This document shows positions 10,529-37,922 of a stretch of DNA of 64,000 bases, in pieces; positions within the stretch are counted from its first letter, which is position 1, and every line of letters starts with the position of its first letter. The DNA is from Planctomycetota bacterium. GTDB lineage: Bacteria; Planctomycetota; SZUA-567; H5-PLA8. A program made the translations under genes and the position numbers. The stretch is taken from assembly GCA_038227875.1 (NCBI GenBank), contig JBBRPR010000001.1, forward strand, positions 32,001 through 96,000, written 5' to 3'. A model generated the notes under the pieces. The model did no database searches. It saw only the letters and a program-made list of their open reading frames with translations, and was not told where the DNA came from.

Positions 10529-13500
10529 ATGCCACGAACGTGGGTGTTGACCGTCGCGTGTTTGATTCTGGGATTCGCACGCGCTGGACTTTCCGAGGAA
10601 CTGGAGCTCGATCCGCAGCCGACGAGCACAGCCGCCGCCGAAGAGATCAAGGGCGGGATGCTTTTCCGCTTCGTACCGTTGAACAAGCCGACGGAAAATC
10701 TGGAGGAGCATCTCTTCTGGCGCACGTTCGAGGGCGCGGTGGCGGCAGAGGCCGCTCCGATCAAGCTGCTGATCGACAATCAACCCGTGATCGCGCCGAA
10801 AGAGATTACGATCAAGGACCGCGGCCAGGCGCTGCAGTACCCGCTGGAAGGGCACAAGGATCTGTCCAACGGCAAGCACGTCATCGTGCCCGGCGACATT
10901 GCCATCGTGATGACCAGCGGAAAAATCACGTCGGCTCATCCCGCAATCAAGTCCGACGAAAATGAAGTGCGCGTGCTCTGCGCGCCGGTGCGGTTGGAGG
11001 CGCTCGACGCCAACGGCGTCGCGGTGCCGACCTCGATCAATCTGTCCTTCGGCAAGGAACGGCTGCTGCGCAGCGTGGAGAAGTTTTCCGTACTGACGGT
11101 CTGGCTGCCAATTGGCGTGAAGTACGCCTCGACGCTCGGTAGCTTTTCGGTGGGCGCCGACGGCAAGGTGTCCGCACTTCCAGCGGAACTGGCCAAAGAT
11201 GTAACCGTAACACCCGAAGGATTGCGCCTGCTGGTCAGCACGCCGCCTGCGGCTCCGCCCCGGACGCAGACCTTGTCGCGGGTCTTCGCGCATCCGCTGC
11301 CCGGCGGCAAGGGCACCCTGAATTGCTACTTCAATCCGGTGGTGAAGCCCGGTGAGGCCGCGCGCGTCACGTTCTCAAAGAAGCAATTTGAGAGCGGCAC
11401 GGGCTCCGCTTTTGTCGCGAACGAATTTACCTATGCATTTCCCAACGGCTCGGGCGGCGCGTGTGGGGTGGAGAAAGCCGTCGCGGATGCAGCGTTGATT
11501 GCCTCCGAGCTGCAGATGGAGGCGGCCGAGCTGGTACAGTTGAAAATTCCCAGCCCGGCATGGACTGCGACCGGCGTGATGCCGTTCAAGATCGAAAACA
11601 AAAAGCTGGGCACGATTTCCCAGACGCTGGTCTACGCGGATCCCGCCGCTTCGCTGTACGTCATACCGCATCGATTGCGCTCGGTCTTCACGGATGCGGA
11701 AAATGCCGGCTTCACCGTGCTGCTCAAGCCGAACTTTCCCGGCGGGTCGGCGAACGTCATCTGCAAGAGCGACGCCGCCGACGCCAAGCCGCTGACTCTC
11801 GGTACGTTGCAGCTTCCCGCGGTGGCCGGGAAGCAATTCGATTCGCGGTTGTTCGCGATCAAAACGAGCGCGTTGCCGGCGGGCAATTACCAGCTCTGGG
11901 TGGAAGCCGGCGGGGTGGCGAGCAGCCGCGTGCCGCTCTCGATTGTCTCGTGGTACTTCCGCAGCCCGTTTCTCGTGCATGAAATGCCCGGTTGCGCGGG
12001 TGCCTGGCCCACGGACGACGAGGGCTTGAAAGTGCTTCAGGATGCCGGCGTCGAAATGATTTCCAGCGGCGGCTTTGGCAGCATCTTTAAGGCGAGCGAC
12101 ATGCCGGGAGTCGATCAGGCACTGGCCGCAGCGCTGCGTGACGAACTGGGAATGCCCGTGGAGACGGCGCAGCAGCGCTGCCCGGCGGACTTCGCGCTCC
12201 AGGACATGCTCAAGCACCACATCCGCATCATCGACTTCTATCCGCGCGGGGAGAATTTTTATCTCGAAGGGTTGTCGTACCATCACAGTTTCAAACCCAG
12301 CGTCGATCGCATGATCCGCCGCCTGCAGATCTTTACGCAACAGACGATGGATTACCCCTCGCTGTGGGGCATGAATTATTCGTGGTTCCCGGCGCTCTTT
12401 GGTTATTCGGAAGGCGGACTGGACACGGACATCCACAAGCGCGATCGCAACGCGGCGCTGGCGGCGAACCTGAAGCAGGCGGGCCTCGAAAATCTGACCG
12501 CCGACGAACGGAATTTTTATCTCGCCAACGCGTTCTCCGATGACGAAGCAAAGCGCGCAAAGTCGCTTGAGCTGATGCAGAAAGCCACGCGCTACTGGAA
12601 GGCGCAGATGGATTTCGGTTTCGGCCGGCACAACAAATTGTACAACGACGCCGTGCGTGACGTTCAGCCGGGCGCGGCCTGCGTGCTGTTTGAAAACGCG
12701 GGACACGACGAACTCAAGCGCACCCGCTCGCTGTTCAACGACATGACGGCGATGACATACGAAAGCTACAGCGACTATCCTGAGTGGCCGATGTCGTCCT
12801 CGTTCACGACCGACTGGGGTCGCGGTAACTTTCCCGGCCGGCCGCTGTGGGTCACGATGGATCCGGGTAACAGTTCCGAAGGCCAGATGAAAAGCTTGTT
12901 CCACGCCTTTGGCCGTGGCGCGGCCGGTGCGGGCACGGTGATCGTCGAGCCGCTGAACCTGCAGGAGATCAAACGCCGCACAAAGGGCCACCAGTTTGTC
13001 GCGCAGTACGGAGCGATCGCAACTAGAGGCACGCCCGATCACCGCTTCGCCATTCTCTCCACCGCCGCGCAGCAGGTTTTCGTGGGCCGCACGCAGTATG
13101 CCTATCATGCCATGTACTACCATCTCACGCGGCTGGGCTGCGCGCCGGTCATCGTCGACGATGAAGACGTTGGCAACGCCGGCATTCCCGCCGGCACGCA
13201 GGTCCTGTTCCTCGTCCGGCAGCAGCAACCGCTGGAACCCAAGGTCTTGAGCGCAATCAAGGCATTCACAGACAAGGGTGGCAAGGTCATCGTCACCGGC
13301 GATACGAAAGTGAAGATCGACGGCTCAATCGTCGCGGGCAACACCGTGAAAAATATTTGGGACCTGGGCGGCTTCGTTTCGCACCCGCAATTGTGGGAGG
13401 AGTTCGAAAAGAATTGGGAGAAGCCCTTGACCGAAGCGCTGGCGAAGGCTGGCGTTCCTCCCGCGGCGAAAACCGATCCGCACCGCGGCGTTGTGGTTTC

Positions 13501-16500
13501 AGTCGACAGCGGCTCGGTGCGCTATGTAGTCGTGATCTCGGATGAAGAAAATCAGTCGTGGGCGGTCTTCAAACCCAATCCAGCGCTCCCGGTTTCTCTG
13601 GAAGGGACCGGCTGGACCGTGCGCGATCTGGTGAAGCAACAGCTGCTGAAAGGCGCGGAGAAGGATGGCCGGACGGATGTCTCCGTCGATCTGATCACCG
13701 AGCCGGTGACCGTGCTGGCGCTCTACAAAGAAGCACCGTCGGCCGTGACCATCAAAGTCCAAGGCGATGTTCACGCTGGCGGCGATCTGGTGCTTAACAC
13801 GGAGGTGCTGGCCGGCGCAAAACCGCTGGGCGCGGTACCAATTCAGGTCGACATCACCGATGCCGCGGGCGTGGTCCGTTTCTCGGCGTACCGCGGCGCG
13901 GGCGACGAAATCCGCTGCGCCGTTCCCGGATTGGATGTGGCCGGAAATTGGACGATCAAGGTTCAGGAGCAAATCACCGGCGTCACCGCAACTGCGGCCG
14001 TCGCGGTCGGGGCGGCAGTGAAAGCCGAAGCCGCGCTGACGTCGGTGGGTGATGTTCATGTCGTCAACGCCGATCACCTCCATAAATTCATGAAGCGCAC
14101 CAGCGAAAAGCGAATTGTCGTGGAGCCGGGCCAGGAAAAGTTTCTGCCGGTCGCCAGGAAACTCGCCGATGACCTTACCGCTGCCGGAGTGAAGACGACG
14201 GTCTGGCAGACGAAGGCCGACGACTACGACACGCTGCCGATCCGCTGGTACCCGCGCGAAGACGAAGACGTGCCGCGCTGGAACCTGCTCAACGCCGGCA
14301 AGATGATCGCCGTCCGCGAGAACATGAAGCCGTACGTCGACACGGTCAACCGCGCACACATTCCGGAAAAAGGCGGCTACGGCGAAGTCAATCCGCCCTA
14401 CATGGTCGGCTTCGATTGCATTCTTTTCTCCGGTGGGCGACTCGCGGAAAGTCTTCGCGCGCAGACGCCATGGATGGAAACGCCGAACGTTCCGGGCAAG
14501 GGGCAGGGCCGCCTGGTCGTCTGCTTCAGTCCGTTTCTCGCCAATTTTAATGCGCTGGCGCTGGTGGCCAACGATGAGGCCGGGACGAGCAAGGCCGCTG
14601 CGGAATTGCTGAACTTTGCCAAACCCGCTGCTGCTGCAGTTGTGAATGCGCCGGGCGGAGAATGGAAGTCACTGACGCCAACGGTGGCGACGGCTCCCGT
14701 CGTCGAAACGTTCGCACCCTATTCGCCGCTGCGCCACGTTCGCAATCTCTGGGCGACGCGAGACGGCAAGACCGTGGTCTGCCTGGACAGCAAGAACGAT
14801 ACACTCGCGTTCGTCGATCCGGCCGGAAAAGTCGTCGCCTCGGTCGCTACGGAAGTTCAGGACCTGAAACATTCTCACATCGATGACGGTGGACGATTCT
14901 GGACCTGCACGTCCAAACACACGAGCGGCGAATGGTACATGCAGGAGTTGACGTTCCACTGCATCGGTCCTGACGGCACGCAGCACAGCGACTCGCCCGT
15001 TTACAATGGCAGCGTGTACTTCGACACGCTGCCCACGGATTACCCGGGCGGCTTCAATGTCGCGCCCAACGGCACGACAATGCTCCTGGGTCTGCGCGGC
15101 GGTTTTCAACTCGGTGATGTCGGCACGGCAAAATGGAACCGCTTCGCCGACGAACCTTTCGTGCCGGTGCGCGATGCGATCCGGCATCCGCGCTTCCCTG
15201 TCGGGTCGGCGTTCTCGCCGGATTCCAAATACGTGTTGCTGACGATGGACACACGGCCGCCCGGTTGGGGCGGCATGAATATGCCGGCCGAACATCCGTG
15301 CGCCAGTGCCACCTTTCTTTTCGATACGGTAAGCGAAAAAGTGCTCTGGCAACTTCGCGACGATGAGATCCGCAAGTCCACGTATGCGGTGCATACCGGT
15401 TTCGGCGCCGTCTCCCGCGACGGAAGCGTCGCGGCGATTGCCGACTACCGCGGCTCGGTTTACGTCGTCGATAAGACCGGCGCGATCCAACTACAGGAAG
15501 TAATCAACACGAAAATTCCCGAGCGCTTTGCTTCCGGCCCGATCGACGGCGTGGGAGTGTGGATGAGCGAATCGGGAAATCTGACGGCGGCCGCGTTTAA
15601 GAATCTGCTTCTGGTCATCAACGGCAAACACGTGGAACGCGTGAAGTTGCCGGCGATCGCCACCGGCTGCGTCAGTCGCGATGGCACGCTGGCGGTTGCG
15701 GCGCTGGAAAGCGGTGAGGTCGAGGCGTTTGATGCAGAAGGAAAGCCCAAATGGGTGTTCAATTCCAACGGCGTCGCCCCTTTCCTCGCTCCGGTGAACG
15801 ACAACAGCACTCTCGTGGCGACCAGTGAAGGCGATCTGGTGCTGCTCGACGCCGGCGGCAAGGAAGTGCGCCGCACGCACCTGCTCGAAACTACGGAGCA
15901 GGCGCGACATGAAGTGAAGAACGCGGCGGATTTCAAACCGGCAATCATGCCGCAGGCCTACCGCGAACCGGACACGCTGGACGTGGCGAAAAAATTGCTC
16001 GGCGCCAAGGCGATTGCCGCGTGGAAGCCCGCCGGGGCTGCCGTGGCGGCGTTCAATCGCACATTCTATCCCGCCACGGAGAAAATCACGCTGACCGGCG
16101 ATTCGCCGCGCGGCGAGGCTTTCCTGCATCTGGTCTACCGCCGCTTGCCGACAAATAAATCGCTAACCGTCGTCGTGCCGCTGGGCAAGGAAGGCACCGA
16201 AGTCTTCGATCTGGATCTGGAGACGCCCGAATACCGCGTGATCGATATTCCCGTGCAGGGCGTCAAGCCGGTGGTGAACGTGATTCCGACCGGCCCGACG
16301 GAAATCGCCGAATGCACGCTCTACAGCATGCAATGGCCCAGCCCCAATCTGGCGCTGGTCAAGCAAACGAAGACGATGGAGACCTCGCTGGAGCCCGACA
16401 AACTGGACGACACCGCCGATTCCGAGTCGAAGGCCGATGCCGCGCTGATGGAGCTTAAGGGTGAGGACGGCATCATTGGAAAAATGAAGAACTGCGCGAT

Positions 16501-16915
16501 CTTCGTGCCCAATCCGGACGTCGACAAAATCAGCGGGGCATTTCTACGGGCGGGCGTGGATGCATTGAAGATGGTCGACGGCAAACGTTTTGGAAACGCG
16601 CACGTTCCAGCGTGGAAGCCGGGCCTGCTCTTCATGGGCTCGTGGATGACGATTGATTTCGCCAAGCCGGTAACGATCAGCCTGGTGGCGACCTACGATC
16701 GCGCGCAAAAGCAATCGCTGGTGAATCAGAACATTGCCGTCTTTTCCATCGATGGAACGCGTGAAAAAGTGCTCAACGGCATCACGATCAATGACCAGTA
16801 TTGGTGCGTGTTCCCCACGCCCGCGCGCGAGGTAAAAACGCTCGGCGTGCACATTATTGCGCCGAAGGACGAAGGGCTGAGCGAGATTGAGGCGTATCAG
16901 AGTCTCGAGAAGTAG
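10529..16915 (+). CDS. Giant secreted multidomain protein (Ig-like, GH42/GH-A-like barrel plus trimerisation-like domain, beta-propeller, C-terminal discoidin-like)
   Basis: Signal peptide MPRTWVLTVACLILGFARA (alternative start GTG 10496). GATase-like segment AIKAFTDKGGKVIV, propeller repeats (GEVEAFDAEGKPKWVF) and discoidin-like end (WMTIDF..LSEIEAY). Confidence 0.75.
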   Translation: MPRTWVLTVACLILGFARAGLSEELELDPQPTSTAAAEEIKGGMLFRFVPLNKPTENLEEHLFWRTFEGAVAAEAAPIKLLIDNQPVIAPKEITIKDRGQALQYPLEGHKDLSNGKHVIVPGDIAIVMTSGKITSAHPAIKSDENEVRVLCAPVRLEALDANGVAVPTSINLSFGKERLLRSVEKFSVLTVWLPIGVKYASTLGSFSVGADGKVSALPAELAKDVTVTPEGLRLLVSTPPAAPPRTQTLSRVFAHPLPGGKGTLNCYFNPVVKPGEAARVTFSKKQFESGTGSAFVANEFTYAFPNGSGGACGVEKAVADAALIASELQMEAAELVQLKIPSPAWTATGVMPFKIENKKLGTISQTLVYADPAASLYVIPHRLRSVFTDAENAGFTVLLKPNFPGGSANVICKSDAADAKPLTLGTLQLPAVAGKQFDSRLFAIKTSALPAGNYQLWVEAGGVASSRVPLSIVSWYFRSPFLVHEMPGCAGAWPTDDEGLKVLQDAGVEMISSGGFGSIFKASDMPGVDQALAAALRDELGMPVETAQQRCPADFALQDMLKHHIRIIDFYPRGENFYLEGLSYHHSFKPSVDRMIRRLQIFTQQTMDYPSLWGMNYSWFPALFGYSEGGLDTDIHKRDRNAALAANLKQAGLENLTADERNFYLANAFSDDEAKRAKSLELMQKATRYWKAQMDFGFGRHNKLYNDAVRDVQPGAACVLFENAGHDELKRTRSLFNDMTAMTYESYSDYPEWPMSSSFTTDWGRGNFPGRPLWVTMDPGNSSEGQMKSLFHAFGRGAAGAGTVIVEPLNLQEIKRRTKGHQFVAQYGAIATRGTPDHRFAILSTAAQQVFVGRTQYAYHAMYYHLTRLGCAPVIVDDEDVGNAGIPAGTQVLFLVRQQQPLEPKVLSAIKAFTDKGGKVIVTGDTKVKIDGSIVAGNTVKNIWDLGGFVSHPQLWEEFEKNWEKPLTEALAKAGVPPAAKTDPHRGVVVSVDSGSVRYVVVISDEENQSWAVFKPNPALPVSLEGTGWTVRDLVKQQLLKGAEKDGRTDVSVDLITEPVTVLALYKEAPSAVTIKVQGDVHAGGDLVLNTEVLAGAKPLGAVPIQVDITDAAGVVRFSAYRGAGDEIRCAVPGLDVAGNWTIKVQEQITGVTATAAVAVGAAVKAEAALTSVGDVHVVNADHLHKFMKRTSEKRIVVEPGQEKFLPVARKLADDLTAAGVKTTVWQTKADDYDTLPIRWYPREDEDVPRWNLLNAGKMIAVRENMKPYVDTVNRAHIPEKGGYGEVNPPYMVGFDCILFSGGRLAESLRAQTPWMETPNVPGKGQGRLVVCFSPFLANFNALALVANDEAGTSKAAAELLNFAKPAAAAVVNAPGGEWKSLTPTVATAPVVETFAPYSPLRHVRNLWATRDGKTVVCLDSKNDTLAFVDPAGKVVASVATEVQDLKHSHIDDGGRFWTCTSKHTSGEWYMQELTFHCIGPDGTQHSDSPVYNGSVYFDTLPTDYPGGFNVAPNGTTMLLGLRGGFQLGDVGTAKWNRFADEPFVPVRDAIRHPRFPVGSAFSPDSKYVLLTMDTRPPGWGGMNMPAEHPCASATFLFDTVSEKVLWQLRDDEIRKSTYAVHTGFGAVSRDGSVAAIADYRGSVYVVDKTGAIQLQEVINTKIPERFASGPIDGVGVWMSESGNLTAAAFKNLLLVINGKHVERVKLPAIATGCVSRDGTLAVAALESGEVEAFDAEGKPKWVFNSNGVAPFLAPVNDNSTLVATSEGDLVLLDAGGKEVRRTHLLETTEQARHEVKNAADFKPAIMPQAYREPDTLDVAKKLLGAKAIAAWKPAGAAVAAFNRTFYPATEKITLTGDSPRGEAFLHLVYRRLPTNKSLTVVVPLGKEGTEVFDLDLETPEYRVIDIPVQGVKPVVNVIPTGPTEIAECTLYSMQWPSPNLALVKQTKTMETSLEPDKLDDTADSESKADAALMELKGEDGIIGKMKNCAIFVPNPDVDKISGAFLRAGVDALKMVDGKRFGNAHVPAWKPGLLFMGSWMTIDFAKPVTISLVATYDRAQKQSLVNQNIAVFSIDGTREKVLNGITINDQYWCVFPTPAREVKTLGVHIIAPKDEGLSEIEAYQSLEK

Positions 16916-16967
16916 ACCCTGGTTCAAATTTGTACCAGATTCGGGGAGCGTGGCAGTGAATGTACGA

Positions 16968-18059
16968 ATGATCATCTTTCTCGGGCTGGGCTGGATCACC
17001 ATGACGATGCACGTTTCAGCGCTGGAAACAATCACTGCGACCGACCGGATTGTCTTTGTCGGCGATTCAATCACCGATGGCTTTACCTGTCCCTTGCTGG
17101 TCCAGCAGGCCCTGTCCGAGGCCGGAAAACCCGTACCGAAGCTGATCAACGCTGGCGTCGGCAGCGACACCGCGGAGATGATGGCCAAGCGCATCGAGCG
17201 CGATGTGCTGCCGCAACGCCCAACGCTCGTTTTCCTGAGCGCCGGTGTTAACGACGCGATTCGCAACGTTTCCGTGGAAGCGTATCAGAAGAGCATTAAA
17301 TCGATTACCGCGCAGCTGCAGAAGGAAAACATCCCGATCGTCATTTTCACAGCGACAATCCTGGGTGAGCCAAACGCGGACAAGGAAAAACGCATCGATG
17401 AATTCAACGTTTTCCTACGCGCGTTTGCCGCGGAATCCGGTTACCGCGTCGCCGATGTCAACGCGTTGATGCAGGCGGCACGAAAGTCCGGCGACCAGGG
17501 CATGATCATGACCGATCACGTGCACCTGACGTTCCACGGTTACGAATTCATGGCGCGCGCCGCACTGAATTCGCTGGGGCTAGGCGACCTGAGCGTGCCG
17601 ACGGAACTTAAACCGCCGCCATACTCCGGGTTGATCAAGTCCTGGAAATTCCGCACGGCCAAAGACGCGTTGACCGACCAGACGATCCGCGACGTCACCG
17701 TCGACGGCACCTGGAAGTCGTACGAACTGCCAGAAAAGCAACCCGTAACGGAGAGCTGGTGGACCGAGCACGAACGGCAGCGCGGCACGGCCGTCTCGGT
17801 CGAACGCGAATTCGGAAAGTCGCCGCGGTACATTGGCGTGACGGAACTTGAGGAGAAAGCGCCACGCAGCGTGACGTTCCACGTCGGCGCGGCGCTCGAC
17901 GCCATCTGGCTTAATGGTCAGCGCATCTACAAAGCCTCTGACTGGCGCGGCTGGCATCTGGACCGCGAACGCGCGTCGGCGGAACTGAAAGCCGGACGCA
18001 ATCAGCTCGTGATCGAGACCTGCGGACAGTTCATTTTAACGATGGATGATGGAAAATGA
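16968..18059 (+). CDS. SGNH/GDSL hydrolase with C-terminal beta-sandwich (galactose-binding/PA14-like) domain
   Basis: All four SGNH blocks present: VFVGDSIT, NAGVGSD, GVND, DHVH. Hydrophobic N-terminus. Start could be 16957-17001. Confidence 0.88.
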   Translation: MIIFLGLGWITMTMHVSALETITATDRIVFVGDSITDGFTCPLLVQQALSEAGKPVPKLINAGVGSDTAEMMAKRIERDVLPQRPTLVFLSAGVNDAIRNVSVEAYQKSIKSITAQLQKENIPIVIFTATILGEPNADKEKRIDEFNVFLRAFAAESGYRVADVNALMQAARKSGDQGMIMTDHVHLTFHGYEFMARAALNSLGLGDLSVPTELKPPPYSGLIKSWKFRTAKDALTDQTIRDVTVDGTWKSYELPEKQPVTESWWTEHERQRGTAVSVEREFGKSPRYIGVTELEEKAPRSVTFHVGAALDAIWLNGQRIYKASDWRGWHLDRERASAELKAGRNQLVIETCGQFILTMDDGK

Positions 18060-18087
18060 CCTTCTGGCAAATTTGCCAGAAGGTCAT
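18056..18087. terminator. Perfect 32-bp palindrome between convergent genes (possible bidirectional terminator or REP-like hairpin)
   Basis: ATGACCTTCTGGCAAA|TTTGCCAGAAGGTCAT overlaps the SGNH stop codon. No clear U-tract. Confidence 0.6.
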
Positions 18088-18113
18088 CATCGATAAATCG
18101 AATTGCGTCCGAA

Positions 18114-20168
18114 CTACTTCGTGATCGCCGCGGGCAGGTCGGTCTCGGTGATCGCATAGGTGTGGCACGCTTTCAGCTTATAGGACTTCGCCTGTGGCAG
18201 GTCGGTGCCGGTGGAGAGGTCCGTCACCTTGCCGGGCAGCGCAACCTCCCGGTCGGCGAAGTTCCAGACCGTCGCGCGCGTACGTTCCTTGTTATGCCAG
18301 ACCACCGCGTTGCCATCTTCCTGCAGGAAGCGGCGATGCATCTGGGCGCGATTTTTGGAGTAGTCGCGGATCGCGCGTTTGTGCTCGTCGCCCCACGCGT
18401 CGTCGATGCGGATTTGCTTGCCGTCCCGTTCAACGTGCAGCGGCAGGCCGGGGTCGGTCATGTGCGCCAGGCAGCGGTAGACGACCGCCGATTCCTCAAT
18501 CTGCTCCATTTTCATGCCGGGATGTGGAACGGTGACGTAGCCGAGTGAAACCTTGAGCTTGTAGGCGGCGAACATCTGGTCGGGCTTGCCGTAATCGGCG
18601 GGACAGCCGTGCATCGGTAGTCCCCACGGGCCGAAGGATTCGATGCGGAAGTGGTAGCCGAAATCCTGCAGATCCTTGAACGCGAGCAGCAGTTCGCGCC
18701 ACTGGGTGGTCGGCTTCATGTTCGTGTAGCTGACGGGGAAGAAGCCGAGGTTGTAGAAGCTGTCGAAGAAGATGCCTTTCAGTCCGGTCAATTCGGCATT
18801 TTTCTTCAGCCCGTTGACCCAGAAGTTCCGCGCGTCCGGCGTTTTAAAATTCAGGACGCTCATGCAGCCCATGTACGCGCCGCCCCATTTCTGGCGCGTG
18901 TCTTCCAGCAGCACGTACCAGTTTTTGCCATCCGCACGTTCGTTTCTGTTATACGGGCTGGAGAGCGCCTGATCGTTGTTGGTCCATGGATAGACTTCGA
19001 TGCCATGCTCGCGACAATCGTTGACGATCTTCTTGAGTGCTTCGGGACCGCCGAGCTTCGGCGAGACTTCGTACTCGTGGCCGCAGCACATATTCCAATT
19101 CCATACGCCGGGCATTGGTCCCTGCTCGGTCATGGCGGACTTGTTGACGTTGTCGATGAAGATCGCCTCGACGCCCATGTTGATCGCGGCGGGGACGAGG
19201 TCCTTGTAGTAACTCTCGATCGTGAACTTCTGCCAGAAATTCTGGGCCAGCATCAGCGTCAGCGGCTCTTCCTGGATGCCGTATTCGGCGCGCGCGCGAT
19301 CGTGGATTTCATCGAAGGCCCACGTCCAGAGATTGCGTTGATCAATGTCGCTCTTGCGGTCGCTGTTGAGCAGGATCGACTTGGCCGACGTCTTGTAGTT
19401 CAACGCGTGATCGAAGATGTGCTTGTCGAACGTTTTCAGCTCCGGCTTGCCGGGTTCGCGCATCACCAATGAACGGATCAGATCGACGCGCTCGAAAACG
19501 CCCATCAATGTTTCGTTGCCGCGGTACTGGAAGTCGAAGGAACCATGCGACGCCCAGCGCGGCAGATTGTGGGTCATCACCGGATTGTCATTCGGGTCGC
19601 CGAAGTAGAAACGGCCTTCGGTGCTCCATTGTGTCGTCGCGTCGAAGGTTGCCGACGGTGCGGAGCAGGACGATTGCGAAATCGCCGTCGCGCCGAGGAT
19701 ATCGCCGTTGAGTTCCCACGTGGCCTGATCGAGCAGGTAAAAGAGCGGCACGTTTTCGCTGGAGTAATCGTAGTGGTACGAGAAGCCGTCGAAGCTGTGT
19801 CTGAAGAACTGGTCCTTGGCGGGCTTGATCACCAGATCGAGTTTGCCGGTGCCCTCGACGCGTGGAGCGTCCCAGTCGCCGGTTTCGTGAATCGGGTCGA
19901 AGCTGTGATCGCGCATCAACTTCACCGGCAGCGGGCGGAAGATCGCCTCGGTGCGGATGCGGATTTCCGCGGGGCTCTGGTCGATGGCCAGCAGCCGCAG
20001 TTCGCTCGGTTCGGAACCTTGGAAACTCTGCGTGAACGGTCGCAGCGGCAAGCGGCCGGATCGGACTTCCGTTCTGCCGATCGCGATTTTTCCCAGCCCG
20101 ATAAAATTCTGGCCTTCGGTGAGCACTTCGAAACTGCAGGCGCCCAGCTTGATCGTTTCCCGTTTCAC
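18114..20168 (-). CDS. Uncharacterised cytoplasmic glycoside-hydrolase-like protein, paralog A
   Basis: GTG start with AGGAG RBS. TIM-barrel-like segment LGGPEALKKIVNDCREHGIEVYPW..GIFFDSFY..FRIESFG. Colinear with the neighbouring gene. Confidence 0.75.
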   Translation of the reverse strand: MKRETIKLGACSFEVLTEGQNFIGLGKIAIGRTEVRSGRLPLRPFTQSFQGSEPSELRLLAIDQSPAEIRIRTEAIFRPLPVKLMRDHSFDPIHETGDWDAPRVEGTGKLDLVIKPAKDQFFRHSFDGFSYHYDYSSENVPLFYLLDQATWELNGDILGATAISQSSCSAPSATFDATTQWSTEGRFYFGDPNDNPVMTHNLPRWASHGSFDFQYRGNETLMGVFERVDLIRSLVMREPGKPELKTFDKHIFDHALNYKTSAKSILLNSDRKSDIDQRNLWTWAFDEIHDRARAEYGIQEEPLTLMLAQNFWQKFTIESYYKDLVPAAINMGVEAIFIDNVNKSAMTEQGPMPGVWNWNMCCGHEYEVSPKLGGPEALKKIVNDCREHGIEVYPWTNNDQALSSPYNRNERADGKNWYVLLEDTRQKWGGAYMGCMSVLNFKTPDARNFWVNGLKKNAELTGLKGIFFDSFYNLGFFPVSYTNMKPTTQWRELLLAFKDLQDFGYHFRIESFGPWGLPMHGCPADYGKPDQMFAAYKLKVSLGYVTVPHPGMKMEQIEESAVVYRCLAHMTDPGLPLHVERDGKQIRIDDAWGDEHKRAIRDYSKNRAQMHRRFLQEDGNAVVWHNKERTRATVWNFADREVALPGKVTDLSTGTDLPQAKSYKLKACHTYAITETDLPAAITK

Positions 20169-20256
20169 AGCGGTCTCCTGTTCGCATTGACTTGAGTTTG
20201 GGTTGGTGGCCCACCCCGTCGTAAATTTACCACAGGGTTAGAAACCACCACTCGGT

Positions 20257-22296: not shown

Positions 22297-22339
22297 AGGT
22301 GACCCCTTTGCGCACGTTGTGATGGCTAACGCTCTCGTT

Positions 22340-22402
22340 CATTATTAATATACCACAGATTTAATAATGTTATGCTTTTTAATGGAAATTATTAAAAACA
22401 TA
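22340..22402. promoter_or_regulatory. AT-rich divergent promoter region with two inverted repeats
   Basis: CATTATTAA-N12-TTAATAATG (22340-22369) and imperfect TATGCTTTTTAAT..ATTAAAAACATA (22371-22402). Minus-strand TGTGGTATATT resembles an extended -10 element. Confidence 0.5.
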
Positions 22403-22440
22403 GCGTATTCTTTTAAAGGCTCGACAAGGGGAGGTGACCT

Positions 22441-22674: not shown

Positions 22675-22746
22675 GTTCGCTCAACATCAATGGTGGCCTT
22701 TTGGCCACCATGCTTGTTTCACTTCAACGCTGCCGGGAGCTGACCG

Positions 22747-28185: not shown

Positions 28186-28237
28186 TCGGGAATTCGAATT
28201 TCCTGAACGCACGCGGTTGGATTCGCGCTTGAGATTC

Positions 28238-31069: not shown

Positions 31070-34000
31070 CGGCCTTCTCTTCTTTGCTGGGGTTCACGGA
31101 TTTTGCAGCACGCTTCAATTCTTCCGGAATCGTTTCGTAAACTTCAATTTCATCGATCGACGAGTAACCGTTGAGCAGGTAGACGCGCAGTTTGTTCGTG
31201 TAGACGGTCTTCGGTAATTTGTAAACGTTGTAGCAACTCTGGTTGCCCTTGCGTTTGACCGCGTTCTGCCAATATCCCTTCTTCGCCTGCCGCGCTTCGG
31301 CTTCCGTGACGCCGCTGCGCGTCTCACGGCTCTCAATGAAAGTGTCGATCGTCAGCGTCTCGACGCGTGCGAGATCGGGATCCTCGGCGATGGCCACGTG
31401 CGTGATGAAATGCTTTTTCGGCAGCGTGATTTCGACATAGCAGGGAACGTGCGCGCTGTTGCTTGAAACTTGCGCCGTATTGTTGCCGCCAAACCATTTT
31501 CCGCCGAGCAGCCCCGGTTCGCGTTCCAGCATGCGGCCGTTGATCAGGCACATCGGTTCGCACCACCAACCGGTCCACTGGTCGGCCGGGACCGGATACA
31601 TTTCCACGCGCGCCGGCGGATTGGTATAGGCGGCATCGCTGTTCATGTTGCGGTAGAGCGCCGGGATGCGGATCAGGTCGTCCGACGGAAATTGAATCGG
31701 CCGCACGACAACCTGCGAGAAGACGTCCTTGTCGCCGAACGATTTCACACTGACATCCACCGTCTCCGCGCGGTCACCGAGTCGCAGGACCGCGCGCTCG
31801 ATGTATTCCTTCTCCTGTGCCTGCCCCGAACGCGCGAGTCGCGAAATTTTCGCCGCCGGCTTGCCATCTGCGGATCTCTCTGTCTCCGTGAATTCCAGCG
31901 ACAGTGAGCAGGCCGGCACGGCGCGGCCATAGTGCCATTCGACGAGGTATGTGCCGAAGGGCGCACCTTGGAATTGCGCGGTCAGAGGCTTGCCGGCGTT
32001 GAAAGTGCCACTCAGCTTCGCGATGTCCTCGCCGAGCGTCACGTTCTGCGCCAGCCGTTCCCACCAGTTTTCGCGCCCAGCGCCTTTTAGAGACGGCAGC
32101 GATTCCAGTTCGGCCCAGCGCTTCTCGATGTCTTCCGGCGGCGCGACGCGTTTGAGGGACTGTGACCAGAGCGCGTGGCCGTCCGGATCCAACAGCATCG
32201 CATCGCCGCGTGTCGTGCCGGCGGCAATGCGGCCGTCTTTCAGCAGCGCTATTTGGGCACCACCATGGAGGTCCGTCTCCCAAAGCTTCTTCAGCGTGTA
32301 GTCGAAGGCGGTGAGATGACCGGTGCTGTCGGAGATGATGATCCGCTGCCGATTTTCGTCGGAGACGAGCGACAGAATCATTGCGTTCATGCAGACGGAA
32401 TGCGCCTCCGTCCAGTCGGGATTGGTGACGCTGAGCGTGTCGCCGATCGTGAAGACGAATTGCCTGCTGCTGAGCAGCGCGTGCTGTGAGAAATTGACCG
32501 AGCCGCCCATAAACGTCGGCATGGTGAAGCGCGGGTAGGCGATTGGTTTCAGATTTCCGTCGAGGAGCACATAGATGGACGTGGGGAGCCCCGTCAATTC
32601 CGCGAGGAAGAACGCGCCCTCATTCAGTGCGGTGAGTTTCTTGAGCTTTGCCTGCTTGTCGGGCGGAAAGTGTGCGAATTCACGGATCACCGCGAGTTCC
32701 ACCGGCGCGCGGCGCTGTTCCTGGCCGGTCAGCGCGTCGCAGAAGATCACGTCATCGGCTTCTTTTCCCGCGATGCCTGGCGCTTTGCCTGTGAGCCGGT
32801 AAATGAGCGTCTTTCCGCCTTCGGCTGTCGCCATGAAGCGCGCGGCGCGCCCGAACAGGATCTCGAAGGTGTTCTCGCACTTTTCCCACTCGTCGAATTG
32901 CCAGAGCGTCTTGAGCTCCATGTCGAGCACGCGCATGGCGGTGCCTTCGTTCAGTACCAGGTAGCGGCCTTGCGGATCGACATAGTCCTGCATGTCACGA
33001 TTTCGTCCGAAGTTCAGGCGCCAGCGGAGCGAGCCATCGGGCTCGCGCAGATACAGGGTGCCATCGGAGAGCACGGCCAGGTGCTGGTTGTCGGGAAACT
33101 GTTCTAGGCCGAGCGTGTTGATGTGGCCGATCTTTTCTTCGAGCAGCGGCTTGCCGGCGGCGTCGAAGACGAACACGTTCTTCGCGTACGCCAGCGTGCC
33201 GAACGCAATGCGGTCACCGGACGGCGAGACGGAAATCGTCTCCACTGGGGATCCGTCCTGATTGGCGAATGGCGCACTATCCGCGGTGGGCGGAACGGCG
33301 GTGTCCTTTTGCGTCGCAGCCAATTTTGCTGGCGCAACCTCCGCCTTTTTCACTTCCGGCGCAGCGAGTTTCGAAAGTTCCGCCAGCGCCGCGCGGATGC
33401 CGGCGTCGTCGGGCCCGAAGGCGCAGAGTACATCGCGGCCGAAGGCAAACGGACTGCGCACGACCGTGAGCATACCGCGCCCCGGGCCGGGGTAGCTGAC
33501 AGTCAGGCTGCGTGCGAGCAACTGGCCTTCCTGCAACTCTTCGATCAATGCATTCTCGCCTTCGCCGCCGAGTAACATGAAATGGTGTTCAATGTACTGC
33601 GCGGGCGGGAGCTCCGACCAGCCCTCCCACAGATGAAGGCGTTCTTCCTTTGCATAGACGTCGGGATTGTCGGTGCGCTTGATTTCGGCCTTGATCCCCA
33701 GTGCCGCGAGCTGTTTCACGGCTTCTTCGGCCAAGGGCAGTTTGGACGCGGCCTGCGTTTCGCTGAGCAGAATCCAGATGCCTTCGCCGTCCTTCTTGCG
33801 GCTTTCAATGAATTCACGGACCAGATCGGCGCGCTGGACGTCGACGACCGGCAGTACTTTCAACGCGGCCGTGAAGGGAAGATTCTGCGGCTTGTCGACC
33901 GAAATGGACGCCTCGACGCGATGGCCGCTCAGCAAGTCGTCGACGCTGATCGTCCATTTTCCCGGAGCGAATCCCAGCGGCAGCGAGACGGCCGAGTCGC

Positions 34001-37000
34001 AGGCGTTCACGGCGGCCGCGTAGAGCGTATCGACGGGTTTGCCAGCGCCATCGAGAATGCTGATACGCAGCGGGATCGAGGCGTTGATGGGGTGGCCTGC
34101 CTTGTCGAGTGGCGTAATTTTAATGAGCGCTTGCGTTCCGAGCGTCGCGGCCTCCGGAGCTTCGAGACGCAGCGCCGCAATCGCTTGCGGCAAGCTGACG
34201 AAAATGCGATACGGCGTGAACGTCAGGTCGCAGGCGACGGACGTGCGGCCGTCTTTCTGCACGGACGTGTCGATCGGCTGCTCCGTGAGCAGATCATAGG
34301 TCGTGTAGTCGCTCTGCAGCCACAGCGTCTCGCGGCGCGGCATGACCGTCTGTTCGTTGGCTTCGCCATCGAAGGAACTGTTGTCCGGATTTCCCGTGAG
34401 GCGCGGCGTGCCCATGAAACTGGGATAGGTCATATTCCACACGAACGTATATCGCGCGTCGCCGGCGCGGTTGGTCTGGACCATGAGGTGGTCGGTCTCC
34501 GGTCTGGCGAACGGCTGCGCTTTCACGGCCGTGAGCGCTTCGCGCAGCTTCGGGATTCTGCTCCGCATCTGACTGAACCACCAGGCGTGTTCGATGTCGA
34601 GCGGATCGCGGCTGCGCGTGTTGACGTCGCCGAGTTCTTCGAAGTCGTCGTCGATTAACTTCGCGCCTGAAGGCACGAGCGTGGAGAGCGAACCGAGCAG
34701 CACGGCATTGCCCTTCGCGGCAAATTTCTCCAGCGCGAGTTTGTGCTGCGGCAGAAGGTAATGCAGCGCGGGTACGATGACGACCTTGAAGCGGTCAAGC
34801 TCACCCTTGTCGATCATCTCTTCGCTCAGCACTTCCGAGTCGTAACCCAGCAGCGCCAGTTGCGTGATGCAGGTGTACGTGCCAGAGACGCCGATGTTCA
34901 TCTTCCATTTCTCATGGTTGATCGCCATGAGTTCGTACATGGTCTGGTGGAACGGATAGAGCACTGCAATCTCGCCCTGCGGCTTGACGTGCTTGAACAT
35001 CGGGCCGTACGTGTGGAGGAAATCGCGGATCTGCTGGTAGTCTTCGGGCAGGTATGTTTTGGCGTGGTCGTCGACTTCGAGCAGAGGTCGTGTGCCGGCG
35101 AAGCCCAAGCCATGGACACCGGCAGCAAGATGTTCAATCACATGCTTTTTGATGTTTCCGTGCATGCCCGTGTAGGTGAAGAGCGTGCCCCAGATTTCAT
35201 CGCCCGTCATCTGCAGAAATTTCGGACGCAGAAACGGTTCGAGAATCAGGCTGTAGCCAAAATCGCTGAAGCCGGTCCAGACCATCAGCGGACCTTGATT
35301 GGCGTTGGCGGTGACGGGGTAAGTGCCGTTGCCGGTGAAGCCCCAGCCGGGACCTTCGTTGACCAGCTTCATGCCGGGAATGATTGGATCAACGGCCTTG
35401 CGCGCCGTGCCGTAGAAATCGCCCATGAGTGAGTTGCATTCGAACTGCCACGCTTCCCACTGTTTGGCCTGATCGGCGAGTGCTTCGGTGACGGGCGTGC
35501 CGTGGAGCAAGGCGTTGATGAACTGCGTACCGGGAGCCATCGTCGGGACGTCGTAGCCGTACTTCGCTTTGAAATTTTTGTTCTGCGCTTCCATGCGCGC
35601 GTGCCGTCCTGGGTCGACGATCTCGGAATTGCCGAGCGGATCAGTATTCGGGTAGACCAACGCGAGGCCGTCGAAATTTTCGAACTTCCGGCCGATCTGC
35701 GCGATGAGCTGAAACTTGCGCATCTCCGAATGAACGTCTTTCACGACGCTGTGCATCAGCGAGATCATGCTTAAGTTGCAGACCGCGCCGTTGACTTCGC
35801 TGATGCCTTCGCGCATCAGCGCTTCGTGGACGCTCTCGAAATGGTTTTGATAGTAGTAGACCTCGTGCGACGGCAGCGCCGGCGCGTGGCGCAGCACCTT
35901 CTCGACTTCCGCCACTTCGCTCGACGAATCGCGGCCCATGTAATCGGAGAGCGGATGGAAGCCGTACCAGTCGAGCAACACGGTATCGAGCTCGCGACCG
36001 AGGATCGAGGCGTTGCGGCGGAAGGCTTCGCGCGATTCGTTCGCGGCGGTGATGCTCGGTGGCACGTTCACCCACTGTTTGCCTGCGTCGACGTTGTAGT
36101 GGCTGAAGCGCCCCGAACCGTATATGGGAAAGCTGCTTTGTGCCCGCGCACGTGCGACGTGAAGCGACCAGGTATTGGACGTCACGGCGCCCAGCGCGGC
36201 CGAGGCGGTGTAATCTCCCGCCGCCAGCGCCGCGGTCGCCTTGCCCTGCACGACGAAGTGGAACGGATGGCAACCGGGTTCAAGCGCCGGAATCTCCTGA
36301 TCGACGAGCGCGAACTCCTCCGCGCCGCGCTTGAGCACCAGATGCAGATGCGAGGCTGGGACCGCCGCGGAACTTTTCACCACGACGCTCAGCGGCAGAT
36401 CCGCGCCATTCAGGAACGCGTGCCGGCCAGTCGGACTGAACACGGAAAGATTCGTGCGCGCCGCCGAATCGATGATGCCCTGAATGAAATCCGCGCGCAG
36501 CGGCGAGGCGGGCGAGCAGTAGCCGCGCTTGTCAATGACGATCCGCAACCAGTACACGTTGCTGGCGACAGCGGGCATGATCGCGTTGTAAATGTCGGCT
36601 TCCGACGTTCCTTCCAGGCGGAGCTGGCGCCATTCCGCGAGATTTGTCGTTTCGTCGGGCGAGCCCCGCAGTATGCCGTCGTCCTGGAGCACCGGCGGCT
36701 GCCAGAGGTACGCGGCGACTTCCGGCGGCGCGAGCGTGCCGTTGTCGAACGCATCGGTAAACTGTGCGCGAATGCGCAGCGGCTTGCCGGTCTCGGATTC
36801 GTAACCAGGCAGCGCGACCTGAAAGATGCGCGGTTCATGGGATTCGGAGGAGGTCGCGTCGACAATGATTTTGCGCCGCGGAAACGCGCCGAAGTCGCCG
36901 TGAAATCTGGCCGAGACGGCGACGCGCGTTCCCGTGCTGATGCTCGCGCCATCGCTGGCACTGTAGGCATAAAACGTCTTGGTCGTTTCCTTCTTGTTCT

Positions 37001-37922
37001 CATCGGCGTCGGCTGAAAGCCGTCCTGACGCGCCGTTGATCGAGACGTGAACTTTCTTGCCGCGCAGGACGACCGGCACCGCGGTCTTGGGAATCGTGAT
37101 CGTGAAACCGTTCTCCACGGGAACATCGGCATCCGTGGCAACCTTGCCGTTCGTATCGAGGATTTCGACGCCCTTGTCGGTGAGATGGAAATGGCGCTCC
37201 GAGGGCACAAGACGGTACCCGGTCCCGACCCTGTTCGTGAGCATGTAGAGCGTGAGGTGCTTGAACGTCGCCGTCGCGCTGAGGTACTTCTCTTTCGGAA
37301 TCAGCTCCTCCTCGCCGCTGAGGATGCGCAGCGCGACGGGCAGGCGCCGGAGTTCCGCGGGCATTTCGCGCACGGCGCTGCCGTCGACGGCGAGAATCGA
37401 GACAGGAAAAAGCGTGATGTCCAGCGTCCTGCCGTTTACGCGCAGCGTGGGATCAGCTGTCGTGATTTTATCGCCGGCGATGGTGAACGTGTGTGCACCG
37501 GGGTCGATTGTGTGTTCGCCATCGGCGAGTTTCAGTTCGAGCACGTCGGCGCGGCGCAGGAAACTGGTCTTACCGTTGCTTTCGTAGGTCAACTGAAACT
37601 GATGCGTCTTGTCGATCATGATCGCGCGCATGTAATTGCAGTAGTGATCGAACTCGGCCCTTGGATTGACCTCAGTGTCGGTCACCATCGGCTTGCCGCC
37701 GTTCCGCGCGAGCTGGCCGGAGGCTCCGGCGAGATCGGCCTTCGCTTTATCCAACTCGGCCTGAACGTTGATCTCCGTCATTGCCGTCGAGACCACTTGA
37801 TCGGGCGCGTCACTGCGGACCAGGCGCAGCGTCACCTCGAGCGCCGACGCGGCCGGGAGTATGCTCAAGGCAAGAGCAAAGGCGATTGCAGCGCGTGTCA
37901 ACGCGATTGGATTAGTGCTCAC
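31050..37922 (-). CDS. Giant secreted multidomain protein, paralog of 10529-16915
   Basis: Likely start GTG 37922 (GAGG upstream) followed by signal peptide AAIAFALALSILPAASA. GH42 trimerisation-like LDRFKVVIVPALHYL..LEKFAAKG, propeller, discoidin-like C-terminus. Confidence 0.78.
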   Translation of the reverse strand: MSTNPIALTRAAIAFALALSILPAASALEVTLRLVRSDAPDQVVSTAMTEINVQAELDKAKADLAGASGQLARNGGKPMVTDTEVNPRAEFDHYCNYMRAIMIDKTHQFQLTYESNGKTSFLRRADVLELKLADGEHTIDPGAHTFTIAGDKITTADPTLRVNGRTLDITLFPVSILAVDGSAVREMPAELRRLPVALRILSGEEELIPKEKYLSATATFKHLTLYMLTNRVGTGYRLVPSERHFHLTDKGVEILDTNGKVATDADVPVENGFTITIPKTAVPVVLRGKKVHVSINGASGRLSADADENKKETTKTFYAYSASDGASISTGTRVAVSARFHGDFGAFPRRKIIVDATSSESHEPRIFQVALPGYESETGKPLRIRAQFTDAFDNGTLAPPEVAAYLWQPPVLQDDGILRGSPDETTNLAEWRQLRLEGTSEADIYNAIMPAVASNVYWLRIVIDKRGYCSPASPLRADFIQGIIDSAARTNLSVFSPTGRHAFLNGADLPLSVVVKSSAAVPASHLHLVLKRGAEEFALVDQEIPALEPGCHPFHFVVQGKATAALAAGDYTASAALGAVTSNTWSLHVARARAQSSFPIYGSGRFSHYNVDAGKQWVNVPPSITAANESREAFRRNASILGRELDTVLLDWYGFHPLSDYMGRDSSSEVAEVEKVLRHAPALPSHEVYYYQNHFESVHEALMREGISEVNGAVCNLSMISLMHSVVKDVHSEMRKFQLIAQIGRKFENFDGLALVYPNTDPLGNSEIVDPGRHARMEAQNKNFKAKYGYDVPTMAPGTQFINALLHGTPVTEALADQAKQWEAWQFECNSLMGDFYGTARKAVDPIIPGMKLVNEGPGWGFTGNGTYPVTANANQGPLMVWTGFSDFGYSLILEPFLRPKFLQMTGDEIWGTLFTYTGMHGNIKKHVIEHLAAGVHGLGFAGTRPLLEVDDHAKTYLPEDYQQIRDFLHTYGPMFKHVKPQGEIAVLYPFHQTMYELMAINHEKWKMNIGVSGTYTCITQLALLGYDSEVLSEEMIDKGELDRFKVVIVPALHYLLPQHKLALEKFAAKGNAVLLGSLSTLVPSGAKLIDDDFEELGDVNTRSRDPLDIEHAWWFSQMRSRIPKLREALTAVKAQPFARPETDHLMVQTNRAGDARYTFVWNMTYPSFMGTPRLTGNPDNSSFDGEANEQTVMPRRETLWLQSDYTTYDLLTEQPIDTSVQKDGRTSVACDLTFTPYRIFVSLPQAIAALRLEAPEAATLGTQALIKITPLDKAGHPINASIPLRISILDGAGKPVDTLYAAAVNACDSAVSLPLGFAPGKWTISVDDLLSGHRVEASISVDKPQNLPFTAALKVLPVVDVQRADLVREFIESRKKDGEGIWILLSETQAASKLPLAEEAVKQLAALGIKAEIKRTDNPDVYAKEERLHLWEGWSELPPAQYIEHHFMLLGGEGENALIEELQEGQLLARSLTVSYPGPGRGMLTVVRSPFAFGRDVLCAFGPDDAGIRAALAELSKLAAPEVKKAEVAPAKLAATQKDTAVPPTADSAPFANQDGSPVETISVSPSGDRIAFGTLAYAKNVFVFDAAGKPLLEEKIGHINTLGLEQFPDNQHLAVLSDGTLYLREPDGSLRWRLNFGRNRDMQDYVDPQGRYLVLNEGTAMRVLDMELKTLWQFDEWEKCENTFEILFGRAARFMATAEGGKTLIYRLTGKAPGIAGKEADDVIFCDALTGQEQRRAPVELAVIREFAHFPPDKQAKLKKLTALNEGAFFLAELTGLPTSIYVLLDGNLKPIAYPRFTMPTFMGGSVNFSQHALLSSRQFVFTIGDTLSVTNPDWTEAHSVCMNAMILSLVSDENRQRIIISDSTGHLTAFDYTLKKLWETDLHGGAQIALLKDGRIAAGTTRGDAMLLDPDGHALWSQSLKRVAPPEDIEKRWAELESLPSLKGAGRENWWERLAQNVTLGEDIAKLSGTFNAGKPLTAQFQGAPFGTYLVEWHYGRAVPACSLSLEFTETERSADGKPAAKISRLARSGQAQEKEYIERAVLRLGDRAETVDVSVKSFGDKDVFSQVVVRPIQFPSDDLIRIPALYRNMNSDAAYTNPPARVEMYPVPADQWTGWWCEPMCLINGRMLEREPGLLGGKWFGGNNTAQVSSNSAHVPCYVEITLPKKHFITHVAIAEDPDLARVETLTIDTFIESRETRSGVTEAEARQAKKGYWQNAVKRKGNQSCYNVYKLPKTVYTNKLRVYLLNGYSSIDEIEVYETIPEELKRAAKSVNPSKEEKADAEKHP

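Follow-up and report, generated by a model that had tools for sequence, protein, structure and literature searches.

The question raised by this locus is what two giant genes, more than 2100 codons long each, encode and whether their products act together. Both lie in a 64,000-nucleotide stretch of the genome of a sediment-dwelling Planctomycetota bacterium (assembly GCA_038227875.1, contig JBBRPR010000001.1, positions 32,001 to 96,000; the whole stretch is hereafter called the window), each in its own gene cluster, and they are referred to as L (left) and R (right). An earlier note on this DNA had described them as diverged paralogs, both apparently non-catalytic scaffolds resembling glycoside hydrolase family 42 (GH42), and as two subunits of one hetero-oligomer. 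We found that L and R are real, full-length and anciently diverged paralogs with a similarity far beyond chance. They are not a simple pair, but two clades of a larger, unnamed superfamily of putatively exported multidomain proteins, about 2000-2900 aa in length and restricted to the Planctomycetes-Verrucomicrobia-Chlamydiae (PVC) lineages.

Two full-length paralogs

Both open reading frames (ORFs) are intact within the window:

10499..16915, plus strand: giant gene L, 2138 aa from the ATG at 10499, where the database copy begins
31050..37922, minus strand: giant gene R, 2290 aa from the GTG at 37922, which is also the database start; the longest frame extends to 38039

Alternative starts for L are a GTG at 10496 (2139 aa) and an ATG at 10529. 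The latter, which the earlier note had chosen, is an internal ATG, i.e. Met-12 of the GTG frame. The N-terminus of L contains a signal-like hydrophobic stretch, and that of R is signal-peptide-like, ending in ASA-LE.

By BLASTP, L and R are 24% identical over 528 aa (E 7e-18), with an additional N-terminal piece of 25% identity over 96 aa (E 2e-5). A comparison of profiles made from 30 L-type and 26 R-type sequences gave a probability of 100% and an E-value of 8.7e-59, with 1865 aligned columns and 19% identity, spanning L 119-2148 and R 123-2258. Among 1837 aligned residue pairs, 132 columns were at least 85% conserved in both families, 91 of them with the identical residue. All six motif pairs from which the paralogy had been proposed fall on each other in the L/R alignments, as do the pairs WGMNYSWFP/GLALVYPNTD and PLWVTMD/EIWGTL, and the proposal of colinear paralogs is thereby borne out over the full length.

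The domain plan of the giants is as follows, with approximate boundaries drawn from alignments and matches:

10853..11248, plus strand: L residues 119-250, N-terminal domain common to R (GKHVIVPG...PVRLEALD)
11951..13033, plus strand: L residues 485-845, barrel-like ('TIM-like') region, the most conserved part of L
13034..13732, plus strand: L residues 846-1078, GATase1-like domain B (GH42 'trimerisation'-like) and domain C beta-sandwich
13733..14653, plus strand: L residues 1079-1385, Ig/MG2-like domain and conserved alpha/beta domain of no known family
14699..15943, plus strand: L residues 1401-1815, PQQ/BamB-like beta-propeller
16379..16912, plus strand: L residues 1961-2138, C-terminal discoidin/fucolectin-like domain (DUF7402, F5/8 type C; weak; 2j1r, E 0.016)
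34983..36137, minus strand: R residues 596-980, barrel-like region, with weaker conservation than in L
34185..34982, minus strand: R residues 981-1246, GH42M-like domain B and domain C
33333..34184, minus strand: R residues 1247-1530, Ig/MG2-like domain and conserved alpha/beta domain
32088..33242, minus strand: R residues 1561-1945, PQQ-like beta-propeller (designed propellers, E 1.7e-9)

In both giants, beta-rich Ig-like domains lie between the N-terminal domain and the barrel-like region, and a lectin-like domain stands at the C-terminal end. Domain B of L has Pfam matches to DUF4350 and ABC_transp_aux, both below cut-off. The similarity between L and R is greatest in L 1079-1385 (hhalign 98.5%), where MG2 and FlgD_ig match weakly. 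For the profile of the conserved alpha/beta domain, PDB matches reached E 0.087 at best and no Pfam family came up consistently; hhalign gave no link from it to DUF4159, GATase1_like, ThuA-like proteins or domain B.

The propeller of L was recognized by PQQ_2 (PF13360) with E <=0.05 in nine of 11 L relatives, and the L profile matched designed or PQQ propellers in the PDB at E 1.3e-48 to 1e-10. Both giants thus carry a PQQ_2-type propeller as BamB/PQQ propeller proteins do, and the R operon ends with a separate 943-aa propeller protein. In the giants, however, the propeller accounts for about 400 aa and is one of a dozen domains, and the BamB equivalog TIGR03300 reached 16 bits against a cut-off of 285. 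A likeness of another kind is to the proteins of the CAGE complex (bioRxiv 10.1101/2025.09.22.677704), which are also about 2300 aa long, PVC-rich and provided with signal peptides and MG/Ig-like beta-sandwiches. These proteins differ in having 15 alpha-helical and beta-sandwich domains, and the passages concerned mention no propeller, TIM barrel or glycoside hydrolase. On this different domain make-up, membership of L and R in the CAGE family was rejected.

Distribution of the superfamily

When the core of L (residues 480-1400) was searched against the database, 73 proteins with 42-69% identity were found, and the R core yielded 26 proteins with 42-70% identity. All of these are unnamed or 'hypothetical', in records of Planctomycetota, Verrucomicrobiota, Kiritimatiellia and Tepidisphaeraceae. 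A phmmer search over 1.84 billion cluster representatives returned only 219 proteins at E <=1e-3, nearly all of them long, and no Pfam or NCBIfam model reaches its cut-off on the window copies of L or R. In a scan of 185,579 species, with one genome per species, L was present at 37 loci in 35 genomes, all of them metagenome-assembled genomes (MAGs) of PVC lineages. These 35 genomes come from uncultured organisms, and the family has hence escaped experimental study. The sequencing runs listed were of DNA, from sediment and other metagenomes, with no RNA run among them. Our literature searches gave no description of the giants, and the superfamily was not found among the titles listed for 'giant genes' in Planctomycetes.

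A FastTree phylogeny was made from the shared region between domain B and the alpha/beta domain (119 rows, after removal of two thirds of the L rows and of the two window translations that were duplicates). L and R each form one clade with a Shimodaira-Hasegawa-like (SH-like) support of 100, and each clade is found in several PVC lineages, while 71 of the 119 rows fall outside both. The source genome itself has at least four superfamily members, namely L, R and proteins of 1810 aa and 1470 aa; searches of this genome with L itself and the R profile as queries gave only frames of 2170, 2353, 1814 and 1475 aa. Other genomes contain what we call clade-3 giants, of 2480-2930 aa, e.g. four at loci L115-L118 (G066:C1, G237:C2, G298:C76 and G409:C19) with 2636-2923 aa. 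Both the clade-3 giants and the 1810-aa and 1470-aa paralogs have everything from domain B onward in common with L and R, and the barrel hidden Markov models (HMMs) of L and R give no match in either group. The N-terminal segment of the L/R profiles (L residues 119-250) also recurs in other giants.

Two observations concern the quality of the records. One L-bearing MAG (L071) is titled Klebsiella pneumoniae; its L is 45% identical to that of the window, as are Verrucomicrobiota copies, and the bin is probably mislabelled. Furthermore, five MAGs whose contigs are of megabase size (G402:C11, G423:C1, G426:C4, G428:C6 and G430:C5) have L split into two or three frames, which could reflect either assembly indels or real pseudogenes.

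Co-occurrence of L and R

In a phylum sample of 401 genomes, ten carried L, nine had an R-type match (E <=1e-30) and eight had both; true R orthologs (at least 42% identity) were present in six. The class, with all 62 of its genomes included, had nine L carriers and five R carriers; L was present in all five of the latter, and the four L carriers without R were 74-89% complete. Of the 35 L-carrying species genomes, with ten candidates scored in each, nine had a full-length R, eight more had clade 3 only, and 18 had nothing at 1e-30. The expectation that genomes always carry one of each clade is thus not upheld, nor are the copy numbers 1:1, as two R and one L were found in both G237 and G374. 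L and R are often unlinked. In the window genome and in G237 they share a contig, at distances of 14 kb and about 21 kb, respectively; in G066, an assembly of eight contigs, they lie on different ones.

R seems to need a genome with L, while L does not need R. The many genomes with L and without R argue against an obligate L-R complex, which is unlikely; a facultative interaction could still occur.

A probable GH42-like core

As a reference for GH42 we used ten genuine GH42 ORFs longer than 600 aa, taken from 12 loci in the same phylum after two shorter ORFs had been dropped. One of them matches PDB entry 5E9A (E 6e-243), so that its N-E and M-E glutamates could be equated with Glu157 and Glu314 of that structure, the acid/base and nucleophile, respectively (PMC7105311). 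[quoted passage not shown] The same GH42-type trimeric build occurs in GH164 (Bs164) and GH5 (Op5Man5) enzymes.

The best evidence for a relation lies in domain B. That of R aligned with GH42 at 95.5% by hhalign (E 1.4e-8), the R profile found PDB entry 3tts (E 2e-5), and PF08532 (GH42M) was found in nine of 11 R relatives, in three of them over the cut-off; the window R itself scored 18.6 bits, under the cut-off of 25.8. Domain B of L reached 28.6% when compared with GH42 directly and 97-98% against domain B of R. Domain B is accordingly a PF08532-type trimerisation domain, solidly so for R. For the barrel, a combined profile of 45 sequences aligned with GH42 domain A at 26.6% (E 7e-4), colinear over 329 of 368 columns. 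The reversed profile gave E 0.14 and the best of 30 block-shuffles E 0.018, i.e. none of 31 controls was as good. Language-model neighbours of both cores, with queries that included domain B, were GH42 or GH42M clusters.

The GH42 catalytic-domain model PF02449 matched neither of the two window proteins (E <=1), none of 22 relatives (E <=0.05) and none of 30 L barrel segments (E <=10). Its scan of the source genome listed 20 places, none of them inside the window, and the weak PF02449-positive ORFs, considered as a bridge between the L/R barrel and GH42, were rejected since they match domain B alone. Among proteins of 187-637 aa, only four matched the L barrel (38-54% identity, 54-97% query coverage), and we read these as fragments of L orthologs and not as stand-alone forms.

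Taken as a whole, these comparisons make a GH42-type A-B-C core in the giants likely. The resemblance to GH42 asserted in the earlier note is solid for domain B of R and weak for the barrel. The order of barrel-sized region, domain B and beta-sandwich matches the one in GH42 beta-galactosidases (5E9A, 3TTS, 4OIF and 1KWG; PF02449, PF08532 and a beta-sandwich), and the alignment of the giants likewise shows the helical insert after strand 4 that is described for GH42 and GH164. The enzymes differ in being about 650-720 aa long, whereas the core of the giants sits inside a multidomain protein of 2100-2300 aa that is predicted to be exported; the giants also have no PF02449 match and no nucleophile Glu, and their acid/base Glu is uncertain.

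Other candidates for a relation to this core were tried. The 1448-aa NPCBM protein encoded upstream of R was rejected both as a relative of L and R (BLASTP E above 0.1, hhalign 0.1-0.5%) and as a relative of GH42 (hhalign 1.5%). Between the L and R operons are two tandem paralogs, 57% identical, of 684 aa (18114-20168, minus strand) and 679 aa (20257-22296, minus strand), which have weak GHL15/GH31 barrel matches only and no signal-like N-terminus. Profile comparison gave no relation between these GHL15-like proteins and the barrel of the giants.

Candidate catalytic and pocket residues

In the combined alignment, where residue calls are of low confidence, the nucleophile column (5E9A Glu314, strand 7) holds a Glu in one of 45 superfamily sequences. 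The 18 L sequences have T (11), V (5), M (1) and A (1) there, and in R the position is occupied by L, I, M, Q or C, and once by E. The canonical GH42 nucleophile is thus missing at the aligned column, in agreement with what had been concluded from the PLWVTMD motif. The acid/base column (5E9A Glu157, end of strand 4) is variable in L and occupied by Thr in 13 of 13 R sequences in the same alignment. Neither L nor R looks like a retaining GH42 enzyme.

The pocket nevertheless appears to have fared differently in the two clades. L residues aligned with the GH42 pocket include an Arg (18/18), a Tyr (17/18), a Trp (15/18) and an Asp-to-Glu exchange (16/18), while R keeps none of these. The L barrel is also the most conserved domain of L, with 49 of 361 columns invariant (13.6%), 16 of them D/E/H/K/R; the corresponding figure for the R barrel is 6.8%. 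Eighteen polar or aromatic residues in the L barrel are invariant across 30 orthologs, down to 30% identity, and the invariant residues of L include E555, R583, E590, H595, H596, R604, E638, D644, R650, N733, H736, D737, D759, W763 and W784. With the barrel best conserved and pocket residues kept, the label 'non-catalytic' is not settled for L. Its pocket is very probably still working, either lectin-like or catalytic by other means, and that of R appears degenerate from the aligned residues.

Operon organization of R

The R operon consists of ten tightly packed genes on the minus strand with gaps of -31 to +51 nt, in the order MoxR, DUF58, BatA_N-VWA-ThuA-like, GATase1_like, DUF4175-like, short DUF4159, NPCBM, HEAT, R and PQQ. 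Besides R, these are:

52078-53088, minus strand: MoxR (AAA_3, 2e-62)
51127-52026, minus strand: DUF58 (7.5e-51)
48773-51124, minus strand: BatA-VWA-ThuA-like (BatA 6.8e-16 and VWA_2; TIGR02226 2.5e-18)
46458-48776, minus strand: GATase1_like
44598-46457, minus strand: DUF4175-like, 619 aa
43685..44566, minus strand: short-type DUF4159, predicted to be exported, 293 aa (DUF4159 1.4e-32)
39342-43688, minus strand: NPCBM-bearing protein, 1448 aa
37912-39372, minus strand: HEAT-repeat protein, 486 aa
28238..31069, minus strand: PQQ beta-propeller protein, 943 aa, last gene of the operon, overlapping the end of R by 20 nt

The gaps between the first four genes are 51, 2 and -4 nt, and around NPCBM, HEAT and R there are overlaps of -4, -31 and -11. 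Signal-like N-termini were seen, by hydropathy scan and reading of the N-termini, in DUF4159 (293 aa), NPCBM, HEAT, R and PQQ, as well as in L, and hydropathy indicates transmembrane (TM) segments in BatA, GATase1_like and the 619-aa protein. The BatA-type neighbours also have weak GH42M and ThuA matches.

The full gene order was seen at seven loci. From GATase1_like (or earlier) to R it is the same in G066, in G374 and in one Verrucomicrobiota, one Lentisphaerales and two Tepidisphaeraceae MAGs. The NPCBM and HEAT genes always lie between DUF4159 and R, and a short-type DUF4159 was found 5.5-7.5 kb upstream of R at ten of ten informative loci (nine genomes), three more loci being cut by contig ends. 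R is therefore a fixed member of a MoxR-DUF58-BatA-GATase1_like-DUF4175-like-DUF4159-NPCBM-HEAT-R operon. The clade-3 giants directly follow GATase1_like, DUF4175-like and DUF4159 in four of the six loci examined.

The MoxR/BatA/DUF4159 core is an already known kind of system. The R operon starts with the same MoxR-DUF58-BatA/VWA...DUF4159 core as the Bat/MRP-type MoxR operons (Rhizobium leguminosarum RL3499; Bacteroides/Borrelia Bat), and differs from these in the addition of four or five predicted exported proteins (NPCBM, HEAT, R, PQQ). MoxR ATPases that work with VWA partners are described as chaperone-like factors in the maturation of specific complexes. RL3499 is reported to be important for membrane integrity and cell morphology (PMC3893208). 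By our literature searches, the giants and the NPCBM-HEAT-giant extension of the operon appear to be new: the extension was not described, searches for MoxR/DUF58/BatA together with Planctomycetes turned up nothing on PVC operons, and 'DUF4159' retrieved only the Pfam paper.

Elsewhere in the source genome (locus L058, G000:C34:44000-63999), the gene of the 1810-aa paralog is preceded by one for a 673-aa PQQ propeller. A second MoxR cluster lies 6-10 kb from it on the other strand, with a MoxR that has an N-terminal FHA domain and a DUF4159 protein with two tandem domains.

The L locus and the DUF4159 subtypes

The left operon of the window is also tightly packed, and L is surrounded by the following genes:

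from 2, plus strand: tetratricopeptide repeat (TPR) giant, open at the 5' end, at least 2343 aa, with YbgF/BamD-like TPRs and a weak match to an anammox S-layer family
7068-8034, plus strand: ExbB
8031-8462, plus strand: ExbD-like, 143 aa (our reading of the sequence, no tool match)
8459-8854, plus strand: small Pro-rich membrane ORF, 131 aa
8865..10499, plus strand: long-type DUF4159, 544 aa, five predicted TM helices followed by the DUF4159 domain; its stop overlaps L by 1 nt
16887..18059, plus strand: GDSL/SGNH hydrolase, 390 aa, overlapping the end of L by 29 nt

Together with the Pro-rich membrane ORF, the TPR giant, ExbB and ExbD-like genes make up a Tol/Ton-like energising set that shares its operon with the five-TM DUF4159. 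A terminator and promoter scan of 16500-31200 stayed at chance level.

This arrangement is not general. A long-type DUF4159 was found upstream of L at no fewer than six of about 23 informative loci within 10 kb and at no fewer than ten within about 18 kb, both of which are lower bounds as 117 of 267 PF13709 matches were unlisted. In G298 the order is DUF4159 (569 aa), a 1788-aa protein and L; the neighbours of L are divergent in G066 and unrelated in G405, G416, G420 and G429. L is thus not a conserved operon member, and is only sometimes linked to a membrane-anchored DUF4159 subtype. The subtypes themselves track the giant clades: in a tree of 16 DUF4159 domains, these cluster according to the clade of the adjoining giant, with SH-like values of 92 for those linked to R, 99 for those linked to clade 3 and 100 for those near L.

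Some L loci have features of their own. In G374 (L044, C61) the L-like gene lies beside a MbnB/TglH-type enzyme for the modification of ribosomally synthesised and post-translationally modified peptides (RiPPs) and two PhyH dioxygenases, a setting unique among the L loci examined. In the Tepidisphaeraceae loci L112 (G432:C48) and L114 (G435:C31), the L-like gene has behind it, in tandem, a second ORF about 2100 aa long for which no relation to the superfamily could be detected; some 18 kb downstream, and on the same strand, is a long-type DUF4159, a spacing that is also found in G431.

Possible functions of L and R

We lean, if only somewhat, towards reading the giants as exported proteins in which a degenerate GH42-type core would serve glycan binding or some unusual processing. 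Both would be exported to the envelope, where the propeller and lectin-like domains could add glycan contacts. R would be a structural or glycan-binding component of a Bat/MoxR-type envelope machine, or a client of it, and L a semi-independent, free-standing relative that is in some cases connected to a second module (TPR giant, ExbB/D and membrane-anchored DUF4159). Since L has a conserved polar pocket yet no canonical GH42 nucleophile, it is most likely a sugar-binding module or a non-canonical enzyme rather than a retaining beta-galactosidase. What we infer from these comparisons is export, a glycan ligand, any oligomeric state and a connection with the action of MoxR. A number of points speak against the picture. 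The export call comes from a hydropathy scan and the look of the N-termini, and the barrel fold is a prediction from sequence. Taken alone, the L barrel reached 3% (E 0.014) and the R barrel 0.2% (E 0.32) against GH42 domain A in hhalign, and for the L barrel profile there was no PDB match with E <=10 and no Pfam family that came up consistently. The GH42 alignments differ by several residues near strands 4 and 7, which makes the residue calls uncertain, and in two of them the acid/base position falls on a Glu invariant in the L and R families alike, E638 (GYxEGG) in L and E767 (GNSE) in R. All R carriers examined have L or an L-like gene (6/6 in the phylum sample, 5/5 in the class), and the absences among the 35 L genomes are soft, with only ten candidates scored per genome in MAGs of partial or unstated completeness.

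The alternatives turn on the same observations. If L were an enzyme that actively processes carbohydrates and belongs to a new family, with a GH42-derived barrel whose catalytic residues are relocated or different (E590, E638 or E732 with H595, H596 or H736) and with R as a degenerate structural paralog in the MoxR operon, this would explain why the barrel is the best conserved part of L and why its polar residues and the GH42 pocket Arg, Tyr and Trp are kept in L and not in R; the GDSL hydrolase gene overlapping the end of L would also fit. We nevertheless hold this to be rather unlikely, given that none of 18 L sequences has a Glu at the aligned nucleophile column, that the acid/base column varies and that HMMER shows no likeness to characterised enzyme families, and that the conservation suits a specific lectin-like pocket as well. 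A more far-reaching version, in which the giants are exported 'output' subunits of MoxR/BatA machines, each clade (R, clade 3 and L) having co-diversified one-to-one with its own DUF4159 partner, and in which the L barrel founds a new glycoside-hydrolase-like family with a machinery unlike the Glu pair of clan GH-A, is unlikely. It is quite improbable that the likeness to GH42 is limited to the GATase1-like domain B and that the preceding region is an unrelated new domain. Domain B does account for the whole GH42 signal of R, the barrel comparisons for L or R alone are insignificant, PF02449 failed on 24 full-length proteins and 30 barrel segments, GATase1-like folds are common in the neighbourhood (BatA-ThuA-like with its weak GH42M/ThuA matches, GATase1_like and DUF4159), and the clade-3 giants and the two shorter paralogs share the domains from B onward with no barrel match. 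Against it stand the colinearity of the combined barrel profile with GH42 domain A, better than that of all 31 controls, the position of the invariant Arg, Tyr and Trp of L on GH42 pocket residues, and an A-B-C order that is the one of GH42 and GH164. Least credible, and indeed very improbable, is the hetero-oligomer of the earlier note, in which L and R are both purely non-catalytic scaffolds and subunits of one GH42-like, trimer-like assembly. The full-length paralogy, the GH42 homotrimers formed through domains A and B, the L or L-like gene in all R carriers examined and the contig shared here and in G237 would agree with it, but L occurs without R in 26 of 35 L genomes and in four of nine in the class sample, G237 and G374 have two R for one L, the genes are on different contigs in G066, the two giants have different DUF4159 subtypes and neighbours, and there are further superfamily clades.

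MoxR-DUF58-BatA-DUF4159 operons are widespread, and one of them is linked to envelope integrity (PMC3893208). The PVC operons carry a conserved set of predicted exported proteins of sugar-binding type, of which R is the largest, and this set, together with the tracking of giant clades by DUF4159 subtypes, suggests testable partners and a glycan substrate. Should the giants prove to be the output subunits, they would offer a first handle on what the Bat/MoxR-DUF4159 systems act on, i.e. an envelope glycan. The L barrel region is a sequence family to which HMMER finds nothing related in Pfam, NCBIfam or the PDB, and it may represent a branch of the GH42-type architecture that is new, whether lectin-like or enzymatic.

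Other genes in the window

Scanning the window for Rfam families and tRNAs gave no match. Beyond the R operon, a gene at 56814-60803 (plus strand) encodes a 1329-aa fusion of a GAF domain, a GGDEF diguanylate cyclase, a Ser/Thr protein kinase and TPRs, and is adjoined by a gene for a MshEN-PilZ protein (60841-61614, minus strand).

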